From Myxococcota bacterium (lineage in GTDB: Bacteria; Myxococcota_A; UBA9042; PHBI01; JAWLBL01): 47,705 bases of DNA. The DNA is taken from assembly GCA_041687695.1 (NCBI GenBank), contig JAWLBL010000042.1:1-47705 (forward strand), in the 5' to 3' direction. The notes under the pieces were generated by a model. It searched no databases, had not been told where the DNA came from, and saw only the letters and a list, made by a program, of their open reading frames with translations. The first letter of the stretch is position 1; each line of letters starts with the position of its first letter. Below, one piece after another: positions 39,727 to 47,705 of this stretch. A program made the position numbers and the translations under genes.

Positions 39727-40702
39727 CCGGGCCGCCAGTCGACCGGGCCAGGGCCGCCGGCACGTCGTAGCTGCCGGCGACCTTGCGGTTCTGGCGCAGG
39801 CGCGTGACGCCCAGGGCGGCGTTGAGGCTGCTCGCCGTGCCGCGCACGGCCGTCAGCGCCGCCTTGGGCAGCACCGCGCTGCCCGTGTCCGCGACCTCGC
39901 ACACCATCGCCGTCCCGGCGACCGCCTGGAAGCTGCCGTCCAGCGGGTTCAGCGTGATGAGGACCTGCTGGCCCGTGCCCTTGTTCCAGGTCACGGTCAC
40001 GTCCCCGCCGGTCGAAACCTCGGCGCCCAGCCCGGTCGCCGGCGCGCTCAGGATCACCGGCTCGGGCGCCTGCACGACCAGGCTGAACGCCGGCAGGTCC
40101 TTGCCGCCGGCCGCCGACAGGGTCACCAGCGCGCCGCCGCCCGGCAGCAGGTCCTGATGGTCGGTCGCCAGGGTCGACGCGTAGCTGGTGCCCTGGGCGC
40201 CTTCGGCCATCGGGGTCAGGGTCACCGCGGGCGTGGTCCCGGCGACGGTGACGGCGCCCGCGTCGTAGCCGAAGGTGACGGGCGCCGGGGCGTTCGGGTC
40301 GGCCGGCCCGACGACGCAGGGGCCGAAGGTCTGACCCGACAGAGACGGGGGCCCGGCCACGGTGAAGCGGGCGACGGCGCTGGCGGCGTTGACGAAGCCC
40401 GAGTCCAGCTCGCTCAGCAGGACGCCGCCGCCCAACTGGGTTACGCCGGGAGTCGTGTCGGGCAGCGGTCCGGTGTCGGCCGGCGGCTGCGTCGTGTCGG
40501 CCGGCCCTTCGTCCGGCGCGCCAGGATCCGCCGCGACATCGGGGGCGACGTCGGGCTCGGCCGCGTCCGGGGTCGTGCCGGCGTCGGTGTCGGCGAAGCT
40601 GATGGGCGCGTCGGGCGCCGGCGTGGCCCCGCCACCCGCATCGTCGCAGCCAGCCAGCAGCGCCATCGCCGCACCCACGAGCAGGCCCTTCCGACATCCC
40701 AT
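39710..40702 (-). CDS. Hypothetical lipoprotein
   Basis: GGAGG RBS; lipobox LAGC; Asp/Pro linker followed by a beta-rich domain. Confidence 0.75.
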   Translation of the reverse strand: MGCRKGLLVGAAMALLAGCDDAGGGATPAPDAPISFADTDAGTTPDAAEPDVAPDVAADPGAPDEGPADTTQPPADTGPLPDTTPGVTQLGGGVLLSELDSGFVNAASAVARFTVAGPPSLSGQTFGPCVVGPADPNAPAPVTFGYDAGAVTVAGTTPAVTLTPMAEGAQGTSYASTLATDHQDLLPGGGALVTLSAAGGKDLPAFSLVVQAPEPVILSAPATGLGAEVSTGGDVTVTWNKGTGQQVLITLNPLDGSFQAVAGTAMVCEVADTGSAVLPKAALTAVRGTASSLNAALGVTRLRQNRKVAGSYDVPAALARSTGGPVTLTP

Positions 40703-40819
40703 CGCCGTCCTCCACCGCCGGGCGCCCCTCGCGCGCCGCGCTCAGTCAGCGCCAACCGCCCCGCCGAGTCAAGCGCGGCCGTCCGCTCGCGGCAGGGCTA
40801 CCGAGTCCTGGTTCGGGCC

Positions 40820-40872
40820 ACCGGACTGCACGAGCTCGCTCGTGCTCCGGCATGGCGCAGCTCGCTGCGCCC
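40820..40872. repeat. Paired short hairpins (REP-like)
   Basis: GCACGAGC-TC-GCTCGTGC and GGCGCAGC-TC-GCTGCGCC; the second has the same stem as the hairpin at 148-165. Confidence 0.55.
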
Positions 40873-40905
40873 GCGAGGCTACAGTCCCATGCCTCCCCGC
40901 GCAGC

Positions 40906-40964
40906 TGGCTGCGCGACCCACGAGCCCGAGCGAGCTCGAACCGTCCAACACGCCCGTAGCTAGA
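40906..40964 (+). repeat. 59-bp element, copy 1 (copy 2 at 45120-45178)
   Basis: 54/59 identical by manual alignment; weaker similarity extends about 20 bp upstream. Confidence 0.85.
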
Positions 40965-41055
40965 ACCCGTCGCGGTCGCTCACGCGCGCCGGCGGGCTGC
41001 GTTCGGCCGCCGTCCGGGTTATGGTCCTGACGCGGCCCCGGAGGGCGGCAGGAGC

Positions 41056-42270
41056 GTGGGCGTGGGCGAGCAGACGGCGGACGGGCAGGGCAGGGCGGGC
41101 GCCTCGCGCGCGGGGCGGATCCCCGTGCGCCGCGCCGTCGACGACATCGCCCGCTGGCTGTTCGAGCCCCTCCTGGCCCCGCGCCCCGAGGGCTCCTCCT
41201 GGCGCGTCGTCGCCTGGGACGCCGAGCAGGGCCTCTGCCTGACCCTGGACCGCAAGGGCGTCCTCCTCCTCGTCGAGCTCGAGGACCGCGACGACGCCCG
41301 CGACTGCTACGCCCGCACCGCCCGCTTCAACGTCACCGCCCGCCGCGTCTTCGACGAGGGCGCCCCCCTCGGCCCCGGCGAGCACAAGCTGGTCATGGGC
41401 GTCGTCGAGTTGGTGCGCCGCCGAGAGGGTGGCCTGCCCGACCTCACCGCCGCGCCCACTCGGGCGCGCTCGGCCTCGCGCGATCTCCTGGTCGACCGCG
41501 TCCTCATCCCCGAGGGCCGCGGCACCTACTACGTCAACCCCTACGTCGGCTGCACCATCGGCTGCTCCTTCTGCTACGTAGAGGGCCGCGCCGACCTCTC
41601 CCGGCGCCTCGAGGGCCTGCCCCACGTCCCCTGGGGCCGCTACGTCGACGTCAAGGTCAACGCCCCCGAGGTCCTCGCCCGCGAGCTGCCCCTGCACCCG
41701 CCGGGCCCGGTCCGCATGAGCCCCATCCTGACCGACCCCTACCAGCCCATCGAGCGCAAGGCCCGCATCACCCGCCGCTGCCTCGAGGTCATGGTCGGCA
41801 CCGGCTACACTCCCCTCATCCTGACCCGCGCCGCCCGCATCACCGACGACCTCGACGTCCTGACCCGCTTCGACGCCCCGGCCATCGGCCTGTCCATCCC
41901 CACCGACGACGACTCCGTCCGCCGCCTCTTCGAGCCCCACGCCGACCCGGTCGACGCTCGCATCGAGGCCCTCCGCGCCCTCCACCAGGCCGGCTGCCAC
42001 ACCTTCGTCGTCATCCAGCCCATGCTCCCCATGGACCCCGATCGCCTCGTCGCCCAGGTCGCCCCCTACGTCCGCGCGGCCCGCGTCGACCGCATGCACT
42101 TCATCGAGTCGGTCCGCCCCACCTACGCCGCCCACGGCCTCGAGCACGCGGCCACCCAACCCTGGTTCGACCAGACCCGCGCCCGCCTCCTCGCCGGCTT
42201 CGCCTCCCACGGCGTCGCCGTCGACGAACACGACGACCTCCTGGAAGCCATGCACCGCCACGGCGGCTGA
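41056..42270 (+). CDS. SPL-like radical SAM protein with an extra N-terminal domain
   Basis: NPYVGCTIGCSFCY (CxxxCxxC), VKVNAPE.L..EL, TDPYQPIE....ITR.CLE, and FEP.A....RI.AL..L. Confidence 0.85.
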   Translation: MGVGEQTADGQGRAGASRAGRIPVRRAVDDIARWLFEPLLAPRPEGSSWRVVAWDAEQGLCLTLDRKGVLLLVELEDRDDARDCYARTARFNVTARRVFDEGAPLGPGEHKLVMGVVELVRRREGGLPDLTAAPTRARSASRDLLVDRVLIPEGRGTYYVNPYVGCTIGCSFCYVEGRADLSRRLEGLPHVPWGRYVDVKVNAPEVLARELPLHPPGPVRMSPILTDPYQPIERKARITRRCLEVMVGTGYTPLILTRAARITDDLDVLTRFDAPAIGLSIPTDDDSVRRLFEPHADPVDARIEALRALHQAGCHTFVVIQPMLPMDPDRLVAQVAPYVRAARVDRMHFIESVRPTYAAHGLEHAATQPWFDQTRARLLAGFASHGVAVDEHDDLLEAMHRHGG

Positions 42271-42282
42271 CGAGCACCGCCC

Positions 42283-42454
42283 TGGAGTGCCCGCGCTAGC
42301 GCGGGCTCGTTGGAGTGCCCGCGCTAGCGCGGGCTCGTTGGAGTGCCCGCGCTAGCGCGGGCTGGTTGGTCAGCAAAGCTCGCGGCGCTCACCTGCAGCC
42401 AAGCCGCAACGCACGCACTTGGCTCATCGTCCCGGGACGACGGACTCTGGCCAC
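42283..42454. repeat. 28-bp palindromic unit x3 followed by an internally deleted copy of the ~180-bp dispersed element
   Basis: TGGAGTGCCCGCGCTAGCGCGGGCT at 42283, 42311 and 42339, then GCGGCGCTCACCTGCAGCCAA...TCGTCCCGGGACGACG...CTCTGGCCAC as at 47221-47345. Confidence 0.85.
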
Positions 42455-42481
42455 CCACGCCCAGGCACAGGACACAGAGCG

Positions 42482-42871
42482 ATGCCCCCTCCAAAGCGCC
42501 TACGCCCCGGGCCCGGCCTCGCGGTCCTCTTGATCCTCGGTGCGACGACGATGGGCTCGGCGCCTGCCGGGTTGCGGCCCGAGGCGCCGACGGCGGGCGA
42601 TCCGTCGCGCACCTTCCAGGGCGTCAACCGCGCCGTGTGGCGCTGCGTGCAGGCGGCGACCATCAAGGAGCACGAGACCGTGTACTCGCCCGAGGAGGCG
42701 GCGCGCGGGACCGCGACGACCGACACGCCCGTGGGGCTGGTCATCCTCGACTGGGACCTCGACGAGGCCGGTCAGGAGCTGCGGTACACGCTGCGCGACA
42801 AGCCCTTCATCATCACCGAGGGGCAGGTCTGGGGCGGCATCCGCGAGTCGATCGAGGACTGCCAGCGGTAG
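42482..42871 (+). CDS. Small secreted hypothetical protein
   Basis: Signal-like N-terminus; GC3-biased codons; two Cys. Confidence 0.6.
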   Translation: MPPPKRLRPGPGLAVLLILGATTMGSAPAGLRPEAPTAGDPSRTFQGVNRAVWRCVQAATIKEHETVYSPEEAARGTATTDTPVGLVILDWDLDEAGQELRYTLRDKPFIITEGQVWGGIRESIEDCQR

Positions 42872-42931
42872 CCCCGCTCCGCCCACTCCCGACAGGCGCG
42901 CGGGGCGAGCGACACGACGACGGCCAAACCC

Positions 42932-43375
42932 TCACTCCTGCCGCGCTCTCCTCGACCGCCAGCCGGCGAAGCGCGCGACGGCCCAGGCGAGCATCGCGAG
43001 CGTCGTCACGCCGCCGATGACCTGCTTGACGAGGTGGTAGCTCGTGCCGGCGAAGTACGTGGCGTCGGTCCACGCGAGGCCGCCACCGACCACCACGACG
43101 GCGATGAGGACGCCGTCGATCGCGCGCGCGTCGCGTCGGCCGGCCCAAAGCCCCGCCGCGAGCAGGGCCGCCGCGGTCAGCTGGAGCGCCCCCAGGCGGC
43201 GGAGCAGCCCCTCGACCGCGTGGTCGCCGGGGAGCGACAGCCAGGGCGACTCGCCGTGGGCGCGCCAGGGCTCCGCCCCGAACAGGAGCCAGCTCCCGAC
43301 CACGAGGTCATAGGCGACCACGGCCCCGAAGACGACCCAGACGACGCGCCGCGCCCACACCTCGGCGGCGGTCAT
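42932..43375 (-). CDS. Hypothetical 4-TM membrane protein
   Basis: Four hydrophobic segments from ATG 43375. Confidence 0.65.
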   Translation of the reverse strand: MTAAEVWARRVVWVVFGAVVAYDLVVGSWLLFGAEPWRAHGESPWLSLPGDHAVEGLLRRLGALQLTAAALLAAGLWAGRRDARAIDGVLIAVVVVGGGLAWTDATYFAGTSYHLVKQVIGGVTTLAMLAWAVARFAGWRSRRARQE

Positions 43376-43736
43376 GAGTTGGTTCGGGCGGAGGCCGGGT
43401 GCCGACGCGGCCGCGTGGTCCGCGAGGACGGCGGGACGTGAGGGGTCGGGTGAGGGCTCGGGTCTACGCATCTTGCAGTTGCCTGTCGCGCCAGGGCCGG
43501 GGCCACGCCTCGAGGGCCGGCGGCATGGGTGGAGGCCCAGCAGTAAGGGGGCAGGTCCACGGATTTGGCAAGGCTCCGTCGTGCCGGCCTACCCCCCATG
43601 GCGCCCGCGCGACCCTCTTGCGGCCCCGCCGCATCCCGATGATGCTCCCCGCCCGGACGACGGCGCCGGGAGCGACCCGGCGGCGCCCGTGGCTGGCGCG
43701 GCCGCCGCCGAACCTCGACCTGCACTCGGAAGGCCC

Positions 43737-45095
43737 ATGCCCCAGCCGCTCGAGCACACCCCCGGTGTCCATGGCGCTCCCCGCCCGCCGCGTCATGGCC
43801 GCGGGCTGCCGCTCTTCGGCTCGCTGGCGGCCATGGCGGCCAACCCGGTCGCCTTCTTTGCGGACGGCTACGCCCGGCACGGTCCCGTGTTCCGCATCCG
43901 CCTCCTGCACCAACAGCTCGTGGTGCTCGCCGGTGCCGAGGCCAACCACTGGCTCGTCCGCCACGAGCGCGACCTCCTGACCTCCAGGGGGCAGTACGAC
44001 GCCATCTCGCGTCTTCAGGGCTCGCATCCGGACTCCATCATCACCAACGTCGACGGCGACCGGCACGACGAGCTCCGCCGCGCCTACAAACACGGCATGT
44101 CGAAGAAGTACCTCGAGGCGCGGCTCGAGACGGCCTCGGCCGTCGGCCGCCGCTTCTTCGACGCGCTGCCCAAGGACGCGCCGCTCGACGCGACCCGCCT
44201 GTGCAAGCAGCTCGTCTTCCAGCAGCTCGGCCACACGCTGACGGGCGAGGCGCCGGACTTCCTGTTCGACGACATCCTCCATCTCCTCAACCGCATGATC
44301 GCGTTCTCGCTGCTGCCGGCCCTCGAGCTCCTGCCGCGCAGCCGCAAGACCCAACAGGTCATCGCCCGGCTGAACACCTACGGCCGCGATCTCAAGGAGC
44401 GCCTGCTGGCCGAGGACCGGCCGTGCCTCCAGACGAACCTCTTTCGTGACCAGGACCGGGGCGTCTTCAAAGAGGAAGACCTCGCGCTGCTGGTCGTGTC
44501 GGGCTACGTGGGCGGCCTCGACACGCTGGCCCACGTGATGAGCTTCGCCCTGCACGTCCTCGTGTCGAACGAGCCGGTGCGGCAGCGCGTGCAGGCCGAG
44601 CTCGACGCCCACTTCGACCCGGAGCACGTGACCGTCGAGAGCCTCGCCCGGCTCGAGAAGACCCGCCACGCCCTCATGGAGTCGATGCGCGTCCATCCGC
44701 TCATCCCCGGGCTGCCGCGCATCGCGCGCACCGACTTCGTCCTCGACGGCCACCAGATCCGCAAAGGCGACCGGCTCCTCCTCGCGGCCACCGTCTCGCA
44801 CTTTGACGACAGGCTGTTCCCGCGGCCCCACGAGTTCGACCTCGACCGCTTCTCCAAAGGGCGCCGCGAGCACCGCCAGCCGGGCGCCTACCAGCCCTAC
44901 GGCGTCGGCGAGCACTTCTGCCTGGGCTCCAGCCAGGCCGAGCTCCAACTGCTCCTGAACGTGGCCCTCCTGTTCCGGCGCTGGCACGTCGCGTGCCACG
45001 ACGAGCGCTACACCCTGCGCACCCGCTGGCTCCCCGTCGCCCACCCGGTCGGCTTCGACGTCGTCGTGCGCCCAAGACCGCTCGCGTTGGCGTGA
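43737..45095 (+). CDS. Cytochrome P450 (divergent I-helix)
   Basis: GLPLFG N-terminus, GGLDT I-helix, ESMR, FDLDRF, and heme motif YGVGEHFCLG; ATG 43737 after GGAAGG. Confidence 0.9.
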   Translation: MPQPLEHTPGVHGAPRPPRHGRGLPLFGSLAAMAANPVAFFADGYARHGPVFRIRLLHQQLVVLAGAEANHWLVRHERDLLTSRGQYDAISRLQGSHPDSIITNVDGDRHDELRRAYKHGMSKKYLEARLETASAVGRRFFDALPKDAPLDATRLCKQLVFQQLGHTLTGEAPDFLFDDILHLLNRMIAFSLLPALELLPRSRKTQQVIARLNTYGRDLKERLLAEDRPCLQTNLFRDQDRGVFKEEDLALLVVSGYVGGLDTLAHVMSFALHVLVSNEPVRQRVQAELDAHFDPEHVTVESLARLEKTRHALMESMRVHPLIPGLPRIARTDFVLDGHQIRKGDRLLLAATVSHFDDRLFPRPHEFDLDRFSKGRREHRQPGAYQPYGVGEHFCLGSSQAELQLLLNVALLFRRWHVACHDERYTLRTRWLPVAHPVGFDVVVRPRPLALA

Positions 45096-45119
45096 CCATA
45101 CCGCCCCGCGAAGCCAATT

Positions 45120-45178
45120 TGGCTGCGCGACCCACGAGCCCGAGCCAGTTCGGGCAGTCCAACACGCCCGTAGCTAGA
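45120..45178 (+). repeat. 59-bp element, copy 2
   Basis: TGGCTGCGCGACCCACGAGCCCGAGC...GTCCAACACGCCCGTAGCTAGA, with central hairpin GCCCGAG...TTCGGGC. Confidence 0.85.
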
Positions 45179-45197
45179 CCTCGATAGCCCTGGCCTG

Positions 45198-45259
45198 ACC
45201 CCTGGGACCTACCCCTGGGACTCACCCAGCTTGACAGGCTCGCATCGTACTTCTAGATG
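45198..45259 (+). promoter_or_regulatory. Candidate sigma70 promoter with upstream direct repeats
   Basis: ACCCCTGGGAC at 45198 and 45211; TTGACA at 45231, 17-bp spacer, weak -10 TAGATG at 45254; an in-frame ATG at 45266 sits at the expected +1. Confidence 0.3.
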
Positions 45260-45649
45260 CCAGGCATGGTCGGCCGCACCTATGATCCCGGCGACAGACG
45301 CACCAAGCACAAGCTCCCGCTCGTGGAGCGCCCGACCTTCGAGCGGAAGGACGGAGCCTTGATCGGGATTTGTCCGAAGGGGATGACCGAAGCCGAACGC
45401 AAGGTCCTGCTGGACCAAGCGATCGAGGCACCCCGCTCGGGCAAGAGGATCATCGTCTTCAACGTTCATCATGGAGTCGTGTACATGGCCGAGTCTTCGG
45501 ATGGACGGACCTTCCACGGCTATCCGTGGCGGCAGCGCCCGGGCCGTCCTGCGCTGCCCCGCAGACTCCGCGACCAGCTCAGAGATCGCGCTAACGAGAG
45601 CGGGCACCTGGCCGAGTTCGAGGCCTGGATGAAGGAACACGGTCGATGA
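45257..45649 (+). CDS. Small hypothetical protein; putative toxin/RNase-like (start 45257 or 45266)
   Basis: 130 aa, visibly less GC-biased; KHK, IGICP, FNV..GVVY.A, and FHGYPW; ATGA overlap with the next gene. Confidence 0.7.
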   Translation: MPGMVGRTYDPGDRRTKHKLPLVERPTFERKDGALIGICPKGMTEAERKVLLDQAIEAPRSGKRIIVFNVHHGVVYMAESSDGRTFHGYPWRQRPGRPALPRRLRDQLRDRANESGHLAEFEAWMKEHGR

Positions 45650-47043
45650 AGCGCCTGGGTGTGCCGCACGGTCTGACGTTCGAACTCGACCTCCCCGCCG
45701 AGGGCCACCCTCAGGCTGAAGGGCCGTTGACCCTGCGCCTCGCGGGGCACCCCATCTGGCCCGATCCAGCGACAACGTCGGAGCCGGCCGTCCGCTGGCC
45801 TTGGATCGACCTCCTCGAGCACCTCACCGACTGCTGGCCCTACCTAGAGTGGGAGGAGTCCTACCCGGCCGAGCTCACCCCGCGCTGGCCCGACCAGCTC
45901 CGCAGCGCCGCCGTCTTGCAGCGAAGGCCCTCCGGTCAGCCGCTCGACGACGATGAAGACGAGGCCGTCTACGCTTTCGAACTCCGACACGACCTCGCCC
46001 CCGGACTACGCGGAGCCTACCTCCCGTCGGTTCGCTTCATGCGCGAGCGCTCGGACTTTCGCATCTCTGCCGGCCCAGCCGGCCGACCCGCCCTCACGCG
46101 CAGGCTACTAGCACCGGCCGCTGACGTGCTCGAGACCCTCGCAGGGCTCGGTGATGCCCTCGCCGACTGCATCGAGTGCGCCGGCGGCTCGACCGAGGTC
46201 GTCGAAGCCTGGCGCCTCCGCGCGCCCGACCCCGCCTCTCGGCGCGCCATCGCGGCCGGACCCGCCGCCTCGCGCGTCGCCCTCGACCGCGTCCCCCCCG
46301 CCCGCGAGGCCTCGTTCCTCGCAGCGGCCCGCATGTCCTCGCACGTCCCCGTCTCTCAACAGCAGAGGCTCCTCGACGTCCTCGCGCAAGCCCGACTCGG
46401 AGGCTCTCCTCAGCTCCAGGCGACCACCTCGCACGCGCAACAGGCTTTCGAGTTGGTGCGCCGCACCGCCCGTAGAACCTACGAAGAGGGTTACCTCCTC
46501 GCCGACTGGTTCCGCGACCACCTGGGCCTGACCTCCCAAGCGCCCTTCGACCCGCAAGCCTGGCTCGTCGCCCAAGGGGTGCCCATTCACCCTATCGACC
46601 TGGCCACGGACGCAATTGACGCCGTGGCCTTCTGGTCCGAGGACCCCGCCTGCGCCATCATCGTCAACCGCAACGGTCGCTTCGCCTCCACGCCCGAGGG
46701 CCTTCGCGCCACCCTGGCCCACGAGCTGGCCCATCTCCTCGTCGACCGCCGCGCGGGCCATGCAGCCGCCGAAGTCCTCGGCGGCGCCGGCCCCGAGATC
46801 CCCGAACAGCGCGCCCGCGCCTTCGCCGCCGAGCTCCTCCTCCCCCGCGCCTCCGCCGCCGTCTTCATCCGCGGCCACTCCGACGACCCCGACCGCCTCG
46901 ACGCGCTCCGCCAGACCTACGCCGTCTCTCGCGCCATCGCCGGCTGGCAGGTCCGCAACGGCCCCGCCCAGGGCTGGCTGACTCCCGCCGAGCACGCCCT
47001 CGTCCGCCAATGGACCCAGGACCGCACCGTCAGCCTCGACTGA
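45646..47043 (+). CDS. ImmA/IrrE-family (Peptidase M78) Zn metallopeptidase with a large N-terminal domain of unknown family
   Basis: IDAVA.W, IIVN, RATLAHELAHLL (HExxH), and EQRARAFAAELLLP; short HTH-like C-terminal segment. Confidence 0.88.
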   Translation: MKRLGVPHGLTFELDLPAEGHPQAEGPLTLRLAGHPIWPDPATTSEPAVRWPWIDLLEHLTDCWPYLEWEESYPAELTPRWPDQLRSAAVLQRRPSGQPLDDDEDEAVYAFELRHDLAPGLRGAYLPSVRFMRERSDFRISAGPAGRPALTRRLLAPAADVLETLAGLGDALADCIECAGGSTEVVEAWRLRAPDPASRRAIAAGPAASRVALDRVPPAREASFLAAARMSSHVPVSQQQRLLDVLAQARLGGSPQLQATTSHAQQAFELVRRTARRTYEEGYLLADWFRDHLGLTSQAPFDPQAWLVAQGVPIHPIDLATDAIDAVAFWSEDPACAIIVNRNGRFASTPEGLRATLAHELAHLLVDRRAGHAAAEVLGGAGPEIPEQRARAFAAELLLPRASAAVFIRGHSDDPDRLDALRQTYAVSRAIAGWQVRNGPAQGWLTPAEHALVRQWTQDRTVSLD

Positions 47044-47116
47044 CACTCGCGCCGACCTCAGCCGCTCTCCGCCGGACCCGGATAGTGAAATGTGATGAAC
47101 TCTGACACCTGGACTC

Positions 47117-47391
47117 CAGCCAATGCGCAAGCGCGTGCATGTGACACGTCGTCCCGGAACGACGCGGCCGTTCGGTAGCCCGCGCTCGACCGATGGGTCC
47201 GAAGGCTCTTGACAGTAACGGCTCTGGCCACGGAGTTGCGTGGAGTGCCCGCGCTCGCGCGGGCTCGTTGGATCGCGCCGCTTGCGGCGCTCACCTGCAG
47301 CCAATACGCAAGCGCGTGCACGTGACTCGTCGTCCCGGAACGACGCGGCCGTTCGGTAGCCCGCGCTCGACCGATGGGTCCGAAGGCTCTT
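47117..47391. repeat. Tandem ~181-bp element: 94-bp near-identical blocks at 47117-47210 and 47298-47391 with the GGAGTG palindrome between them
   Basis: CAGCCAAT(G/A)CGCAAGCGCGTGCA...CGTCGTCCCGGAACGACG...TCGGTAGCCCGCGCTCGACCGATGGGTCCGAAGGCTCTT occurs twice. Confidence 0.9.
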
Positions 47392-47705
47392 CGCAATCAG
47401 GGTTCTGACCGTTCTGCCCCCCCCCCGAAGTTGCGAAGGCGAGGCCGCGCTCGAGGTGCGGTGGGAGGGCTGAGCGGCGGCTACGGGCCGGGGTCGGGCT
47501 CGCCCGGGCCTCGGGCGCGCCGACCCCGGGCTCGGTCGGGTCGGGGCCGGCTGGGCGATGCCCGCGCCACCCGAGACGCGGTCCTCGGCCAGCACCACGA
47601 AGCTATAGTGTCCTGTCCCGGCTCCCCGTCCCGGGTTTGTCTCGCGGTCGTTTCCCGGTAGTTGGGCTGGGATGAGCCCCTCTCGGGTGTCCCGTCCCGC
47701 GTTCG

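Follow-up and report, generated by a model that had tools for sequence, protein, structure and literature searches.

A conserved gene pair of a small alpha/beta protein and an M78 (ImmA/IrrE) peptidase free of a helix-turn-helix domain: a candidate toxin-antitoxin module in a Myxococcota genome

The window analysed here is one whole contig (JAWLBL010000042.1, contig C42 of the genome under study, G000; 47,705 nt, ending at position 47705) of a Myxococcota bacterium. About 660 nt from the contig end lies a pair of genes on the same strand, one for a small protein and the other for a zinc peptidase of the M78 (ImmA/IrrE) kind, and this pair is the subject of the present report. The two open reading frames (ORFs), and the two domains of the larger product, are as follows:

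45257..45649, + strand: small protein gene (ORF); 130 aa from the ATG at 45257, or 127 aa from the ATG at 45266
45646..47043, + strand: peptidase gene (ORF), 465 aa
45646..46515, + strand: N-terminal domain of the peptidase protein, approximately residues 1-290; family-specific, with no known family or helix-turn-helix (HTH) in it, and with a predicted surface for binding the small protein
46576..46938, + strand: M78 (ImmA/IrrE) zinc-peptidase domain, residues 311-431 (Pfam PF06114, E 7e-7, above the gathering score)

The start at 45266 is the more likely one for the small gene: the 127-aa form is the database entry and fits better to a homologue of 65% identity. Residue numbers of the small protein given below refer to this form. 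The two genes are coupled through the sequence ATGA at 45646-45649, where the ATG of the peptidase gene overlaps the TGA of the small gene. This overlap had been described in a first-pass annotation of the window, together with a higher share of A/T-ending codons in the pair than elsewhere. Both observations hold. The G+C content at third codon positions (GC3) is 0.78 in the small gene and 0.85 in the peptidase gene, against 0.93-0.98 in most long ORFs of the window and 0.90 in the neighbouring P450 gene. This low GC3 suggests that the pair is of foreign origin in this genome.

The 465-aa protein contains EQRARAFAAELLLP, WPWIDLLEHL..CWPYLEWEE and F..RHDLA, as well as the HELAH motif at residues 359-363 (46720-46734). 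The motif and the downstream Glu motif are intact, as annotated: H359, E360, H363, E387 and E396 are invariant in 44 aligned peptidases of the family, and all 44 match the M78 domain. Beyond Peptidase_M78, the Pfam scan of the 465-aa protein returned nothing notable. The PADLOC families capP (5.8e-12) and RmrA (1.1e-9) match the M78 segment only, the NCBIfam spr1629 antitoxin model aligns to this segment only, and the PDB profile matches to IrrE, CapP and others cover only profile positions ~352-447, which is again the M78 part. Since the protein ends 34 residues after the M78 match, it has no room for the C-terminal HTH/GAF-like sensor part of IrrE or CapP. For the N-terminal domain, no Pfam or PDB sequence match was found outside M78, and protein-atlas scores were 0.78 at most. 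Nevertheless, this domain is well conserved: W51, W53, W64, H115, G123 and other residues are invariant in the 44 peptidases, an AAARMS motif is conserved, and more than 400 peptidase relatives of similar length are 30-39% identical over the whole length, N-terminal region included. The statements that the peptidase lacks an Xre-type HTH and that no HTH repressor gene adjoins it were correct on both counts. No Xre-type HTH was found at E<=0.1 in any of the 44 family members, one of which has an HTH_11 match at E 0.083, and no HTH was found at E<=1 in the five small ORFs flanking the pair or in the two upstream ORFs tested.

A profile built from five close relatives of the small protein retrieved 277 representatives of 50%-identity clusters at E<=0.001, 169 of them at E<=1e-10. 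The small protein has no match at E<=1 in Pfam, PADLOC or NCBIfam, its profile has no match at E<=10 among PDB sequences, nothing was found at E<=0.001 among the BFVD viral folds, and in the protein atlas only unnamed clusters were hit. C36 is invariant in 96 aligned small proteins, and at least 90% of them retain K14, H15, G34, G70, Y73, H84 and P87. A distant subfamily keeps the patterns G-x-x-C-P and (W/Y)-H-G-x-P, so that the Cys and the His persist. As judged from the alignment, the conservation of K14, H15, C36, Y73 and H84 is enzyme-like. The HGYP motif had been described as terminal, which is not the case: it occupies residues 84-87, and some 40 residues, folded into two helices, come after it.

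These two C-terminal helices were considered as a possible ribbon-helix-helix (RHH) domain. Weak matches to FitA-like RHH proteins occur in 5 of the 96 small proteins and to Arc in 2 of the 96 (best E 0.01-0.02), and a profile of the C-terminal part gave a best E of 0.46 against the PDB, with the Mnt repressor at E 0.71. The RHH reading was rejected on the basis of these low counts and E-values, and also because the loop in front of the helices is of variable length and the strand preceding it belongs to the core sheet.

The main observation concerns the association of the two genes. Hidden Markov models of both families were scanned over every fetched locus. Searches with the small protein yielded 55 metagenome loci, of which at least 5 duplicate others. 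The small gene is present in 54, and the 55th is a chance match of 12 residues. Four of the 54 loci end at a contig edge, and in 49 of the 50 others the peptidase gene is directly downstream on the same strand. A second survey gave the same picture. Among 401 genomes sampled evenly from the phylum, 25 contain the small protein, at 27 places in all; the peptidase gene is adjacent at 25 of these places, and the other two stop at contig ends. In the reverse direction, 30 of the 91 places with a peptidase match were fetched. The small gene lies upstream in 14 of the 17 fetched loci whose match includes the N-terminal domain, and in none of the 13 fetched loci with the M78 domain only, which ties the small gene to the N-terminal domain and not to M78 peptidases in general. 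The three N-domain loci with no small gene upstream are L103 (where the flank is only 321 nt long), L106 and L107. The two genes are thus a conserved, obligate pair, as had been put forward for a survey of gene neighbourhoods to decide. Decayed copies of the pair exist in loci L022, L057, L062, L066 and L068. In L022 (4974-5601), which lies in an O-antigen/ABC-transporter cluster, the small gene has an altered C-terminus in which the conserved Trp is missing, and the peptidase is reduced to two short remnants. A C-terminal fragment of the peptidase is found upstream of the small gene in L020, L047 and L056.

The pair family comprises hundreds of sequence clusters in several phyla and on plasmids. 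Its distribution is patchy, with the 25 positive genomes of the 401 scattered over many families. A search of genome contigs with the peptidase produced one irrelevant weak match. Almost every locus has different neighbours, and no third gene is conserved beside the pair. Enrichment of the neighbourhoods in defence genes had been put forward as a check, and relatives of the pair do often adjoin toxin-antitoxin (TA) or defence genes. First, the pair is present on the plasmid pTs417 of Ca. Thiodictyon syntrophicum, 2 kb from mazEF, and on a pAt plasmid of Agrobacterium tumefaciens, 0.6 kb from vapC/phd. Both plasmid copies are annotated as 'hypothetical protein' and 'ImmA/IrrE family metallo-endopeptidase' and share the 4-nt overlap. 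Second, there are 21 distinct metagenome loci with a length of 5.5 kb or more, and 11 of them carry clear TA or defence Pfam domains no further than 5 kb away, a raw count taken without a background control; these domains are PIN, AbiEii/AbiEi, ParE/RelB, HicA/HicB, PemK, HEPN/RES, DUF433/DUF5615, AAA_15/21, GmrSD and nSTAND3. Third, a second, divergent copy of the pair (36% identity) is encoded on contig C5 of the same genome, and its neighbours are a SIR2_2 + protein-kinase protein (PD-T4-6-like), two HNH proteins, HIT proteins and an MBL-fold protein. From its gene content, the region around this second copy looks like a defence island. The patchy spread, the plasmid copies, the low GC3 and the decayed copies all indicate a pair that is mobile and moves horizontally, as far as can be read from the sequences.

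Several further features accompany the second copy and other relatives. The SIR2_2 + kinase protein on C5 is encoded by a 965-aa ORF on the minus strand (L097, 3563-6457) with a low GC content of 0.56; its kinase part matches PADLOC PD-T4-6, and it adjoins the two HNH proteins. The second copy itself is bracketed by an exact 300-nt direct repeat (L097 8856-9155 and 11451-11750; 100% identical, 2595 nt apart), which duplicates part of a HIT-family gene. The arrangement looks as though the copy had come in together with a duplication of its target gene, or by means of one. Near other relatives, too, adjoining genes are split or duplicated, namely Peptidase_S66 in L024 and Tle1-like pieces in L045/L046.

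A complex of the two proteins is predicted. When they were folded together, the interface score ipSAE was 0.84 (0.84, 0.84 and 0.85 in three runs), and three controls all gave 0.00. The ipSAE mark is reached by 116 of 157 solved complexes and by 2 of 215 mismatched pairs, a calibration that holds roughly in this case since custom alignments were used. The runs share at least 94% of their contacts, and the predicted local distance difference test score (pLDDT) of the partner is at least 79. On the peptidase side, the predicted interface consists of N-domain residues 39-51, 58-66, 86, 102-128, 144-146 and 184-185, which include the conserved motifs. On the side of the small protein, it consists of residues 25-34, 55-63, 76-79 and 84-86 (His-Gly-Tyr) and of the basic loop 89-101. 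The HExxH region (359-363) is outside the interface. The N-terminal region had been viewed as a possible sensor; the model predicts that the small protein docks on it, which goes beyond the role of a sensor standing by itself.

An AlphaFold2 model of the small protein alone, computed from 96 sequences, is confident, with a pLDDT of 90.4 and a predicted template modelling score of 0.84. Its elements are a beta hairpin, one helix, a sheet of three strands that carries Y73 and H84, and two C-terminal helices. A likeness to BECR-fold RNases had been proposed from the sequence, and the structure searches give a weak lead in the same direction. An unbiased search of 48,161 chains put RNase toxins in 12 of its 13 highest rows (CdiA-CT, YxiD, colicin D, RelE, BrnT, Nsp15 EndoU and MafB among them). 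The best structural match is 5t87_E, the CdiA-CT of C. taiwanensis, with Z 4.7 and a root-mean-square deviation of 3.4 over 65 aligned residues; chain E of 5T87 is listed as a CdiA-CT toxin under the CDD name quoted in a passage of PMC9111745. However, the best Foldseek E-value is 0.073, and scores of Z below 5 and Foldseek E>=0.07 fall short of what the tool regards as common for models with no match, so that no solved structure is a convincing match. The fold of the small protein resembles BECR RNase toxins only weakly, and the protein may be a metal-independent RNase of BECR-like shape. Its conserved Lys, His, His and Tyr could serve acid-base cleavage of RNA. Compared with the BECR RNase toxins (CdiA-CT 5T87, colicin D, RelE, BrnT, YxiD, EndoU), the small protein shares their small alpha+beta shape; it differs by the low best Z, by the lack of a sequence-family match, and by its extra N-terminal hairpin and two C-terminal helices.

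Comparison with published systems provides a frame for these observations. The ImmA protease domain is described as an antitoxin hub (D25 in NetFlax) that is associated with many unrelated toxins, has the toxin gene first in 58% of cases, and often but not always carries an N-terminal HTH (Ernits et al. 2023, PMC10440598). [quoted passage not shown] Peptidases of COG2856, most of which carry a fused Xre HTH, have been linked with RelE and PIN toxins, and COG2856 itself has been listed as a predicted protease toxin whose antitoxin is of the Xre kind (Makarova et al. 2009, PMC2701414). The present pair resembles RosmerTA in being a two-gene operon of an M78/ImmA zinc-peptidase protein and a small protein of no known family, with an M78 domain whose HExxH is intact and whose peptidase segment is matched by the RmrA models (best E 1.1e-9). 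With the small protein taken as the toxin, it also shares with RosmerTA and the ImmA hub the common toxin-first order, and like them it is found in the company of TA and defence genes. There are three differences. First, RmrA-type proteins often carry an N-terminal HTH, whereas here there is a conserved non-HTH domain of about 290 residues that is predicted to hold the partner. Second, the RmrA profiles align only from positions ~127-184 to ~287 (of 357-400), to residues 285-431 of the peptidase. Third, the small protein matches no catalogued RmrT and has 0 PADLOC families at E<=1, and the same is true of the second copy. The ImmR/ImmA, DdrO/IrrE and CapH/CapP systems have a homologous M78 catalytic domain with HExxH and the downstream Glu motif, but in the present pair no XRE repressor is adjacent or fused, and the partner is a globular alpha/beta protein.

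The first-pass annotation could match this architecture to no named system, and the catalogue agrees with it: in PADLOC-DB v2.0.0 (2023), the peptidase hits capP and RmrA over M78 only and the small protein hits none, while newer DefenseFinder or PADLOC releases could list the pair. Six accessions of peptidase homologues left no trace in the literature or in the NetFlax supplements searched, where further supplements could list the pair as well. Neither M78 nor ImmA turned up in term searches of the preprint on BECR classification, the preprint on proteolytic activation or the DefensePredictor paper. A Zn-peptidase antitoxin with variable toxins is already known; what differs here is the predicted docking domain in place of an HTH and the unnamed partner family.

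Taken together, these data lead us to favour, with moderate confidence, the interpretation that the pair is a TA module of the ImmA/Rosmer type, in which the toxin would represent a new family and the HTH would be replaced by a new domain that binds the toxin. In this interpretation the small protein is the effector, probably a toxin. The pair would be a self-contained, horizontally moving two-gene module of the toxin-antitoxin/abortive-infection kind, near the RosmerTA-like ImmA-peptidase antitoxins. The upstream alpha/beta protein of about 127 aa, with its conserved Lys-His, invariant Cys, Tyr and His-Gly-Tyr-Pro strand, would act as the effector. The 465-aa protein would act as its keeper, the N-domain clamping the effector over its conserved His face and basic loop. 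The intact M78 domain would be left free as the presumed trigger or regulatory part, and might cut the keeper, the effector, or a protein that signals phage or stress, whereupon the effector would be released.

A number of observations weigh against this interpretation. Toxicity, like RNase chemistry, the part played by the peptidase and a function against phages, is inferred. All fold matches lie below the common level of the tool, so that the RNase assignment is only a lead. To our knowledge, an invariant Cys is not typical of BECR RNase toxins; C36 could instead be the mark of a thiol enzyme, or of a sensor for redox state or metals. As part of a longer protein the small domain turned up only once, in a 322-aa protein unrelated to the peptidase (by a weak type of search), so it does not behave as the tip of a polymorphic toxin. 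The predicted interface leaves the active site of the peptidase unexplained. The window copy adjoins P450 and radical-SAM genes and stands in no defence island, the count of TA and defence neighbours lacks its background, and a search of 50,697 phage records with the peptidase found no homologue. Finally, L103, L106 and L107 have the N-domain and no small gene in front of it.

The same interpretation can be carried one step further, to a specific mode of action that we regard as tentative. The pair might be a transcription-independent, protease-gated suicide module, in which the N-domain keeps a Cys/His-dependent effector inactive by covering its active face, and an M78 domain activated by a phage or stress cue cuts the clamp or the basic loop of the effector, which is thereby released. 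If true, such a module would be distinct from the repressor-cleaving ImmA/IrrE/CapP switches and from the HTH-bearing Rosmer antitoxins, and would include two new domain families. M78/ImmA peptidases are chiefly known for cutting HTH repressors. The present family offers a clean case for asking how peptidase-bearing antitoxins such as RmrA hold and release their toxins: it lacks a DNA-binding part, its dedicated docking domain is strongly predicted, its protease is intact, and the partner has conserved residues of an enzyme-like kind. If the small protein is a toxin, the ImmA hub gains a new toxin family along with a new domain for neutralisation, and the role of the protease becomes directly testable.

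Among the alternatives, the roles of the two proteins may be reversed, which we consider unlikely. The M78 peptidase would then be the harmful enzyme, and the small upstream protein its antitoxin, inhibitor or specificity adaptor. The small-gene-first order matches that of classical type II modules, in which the antitoxin comes first, and the invariant catalytic residues of the peptidase in 44 sequences, the listing of COG2856 as a predicted protease toxin (PMC2701414) and the predicted binding of the two proteins are all compatible with such roles. However, the interface lies on the N-domain and not on HExxH 359-363, which implies no direct block of the active site, and in the Rosmer systems tested so far the peptidase protein is the antitoxin (PMC10440598). 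Moreover, the small protein has enzyme-like invariant polar residues and folds confidently alone (pLDDT 90.4), unlike the disordered, fast-evolving antitoxins.

Another alternative, which we find quite unlikely, is a protease-gated regulatory switch of the ImmR/ImmA, DdrO/IrrE or CapH/CapP type. In such a switch, the small protein would be a non-HTH regulator or substrate that is cleaved after a stress signal, altering the expression or activity of something else. The relationship of the M78 domain to IrrE and CapP is consistent with it, as are the weak RHH, Arc and Mnt matches mentioned above and the two 10-nt direct repeats upstream of the small gene described below. On the other hand, no DNA-binding domain reaches significance, and the segment before the helices is the last core strand followed by a variable loop, with no RHH ribbon. 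There is also no conserved third gene, the neighbours changing from locus to locus, and the predicted contact is on the N-domain, away from the catalytic cleft. The remaining alternative, a housekeeping or niche-specific pair of a peptidase and its dedicated adaptor or chaperone, unrelated to conflict systems, is improbable: the metabolic neighbours of the window copy (P450, radical SAM) would suit it, but the patchy spread (25/401 genomes), the two divergent copies in one genome (36%), the plasmid copies beside TA modules, the decayed copies and the atypical GC3 do not.

The pair had been described as repeat-bounded. Repeats are indeed present on both sides, but they are not the ends of the module. 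The flanking features are:

45096..45196, no strand: upstream intergenic dispersed repeat; 31 genome matches including itself, the core being query positions 27-65
45199..45236, + strand: possible promoter region, proposed from a reading of the sequence
47114..47410, no strand: downstream repeats; a local 116-nt direct repeat enclosing one genome-wide GC-rich element of ~50 nt (47241-47290)

The upstream region contains two 10-nt direct repeats, CCCCTGGGAC, at 45199-45208 and 45212-45221 (13 nt from start to start), then TTGACA at 45231-45236, and then the start of the small gene. The CCCCTGGGAC repeats could be operator-like, or could have arisen by chance in GC-rich DNA. A consensus scan found no canonical promoter 5' of the small gene and one promoter-like site inside it, at 45257-45286. 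No Rfam family matched positions 40000-47705 at E<=0.1.

The two units of the downstream repeat (47114-47229 and 47295-47410) are 91% identical and 181 nt apart; no other copy was found in the genome, and each unit adjoins a copy of the genome-wide GC-rich element. The possibility that the repeats are the termini of a mobile unit was rejected: both flanking elements belong to genome-wide families, two different ones, the upstream and downstream elements resemble each other only over a 31-nt match at 81%, and the predicted folds of the flanking repeats, the 116-nt unit included, are no better than those of shuffled sequences. Since both families are dispersed over the genome, with 31 and 69 matches, the flanking repeats do not delimit the module. 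The element at 47241-47290 accounts for the 69 matches, one of which is at 42339-42442 in the same window. At least two abundant families of intergenic repeats (31 and 69 matches) therefore exist in this genome, and several copies lie in the window, at 45096-45196, 40887-40964 and 42283-42442.

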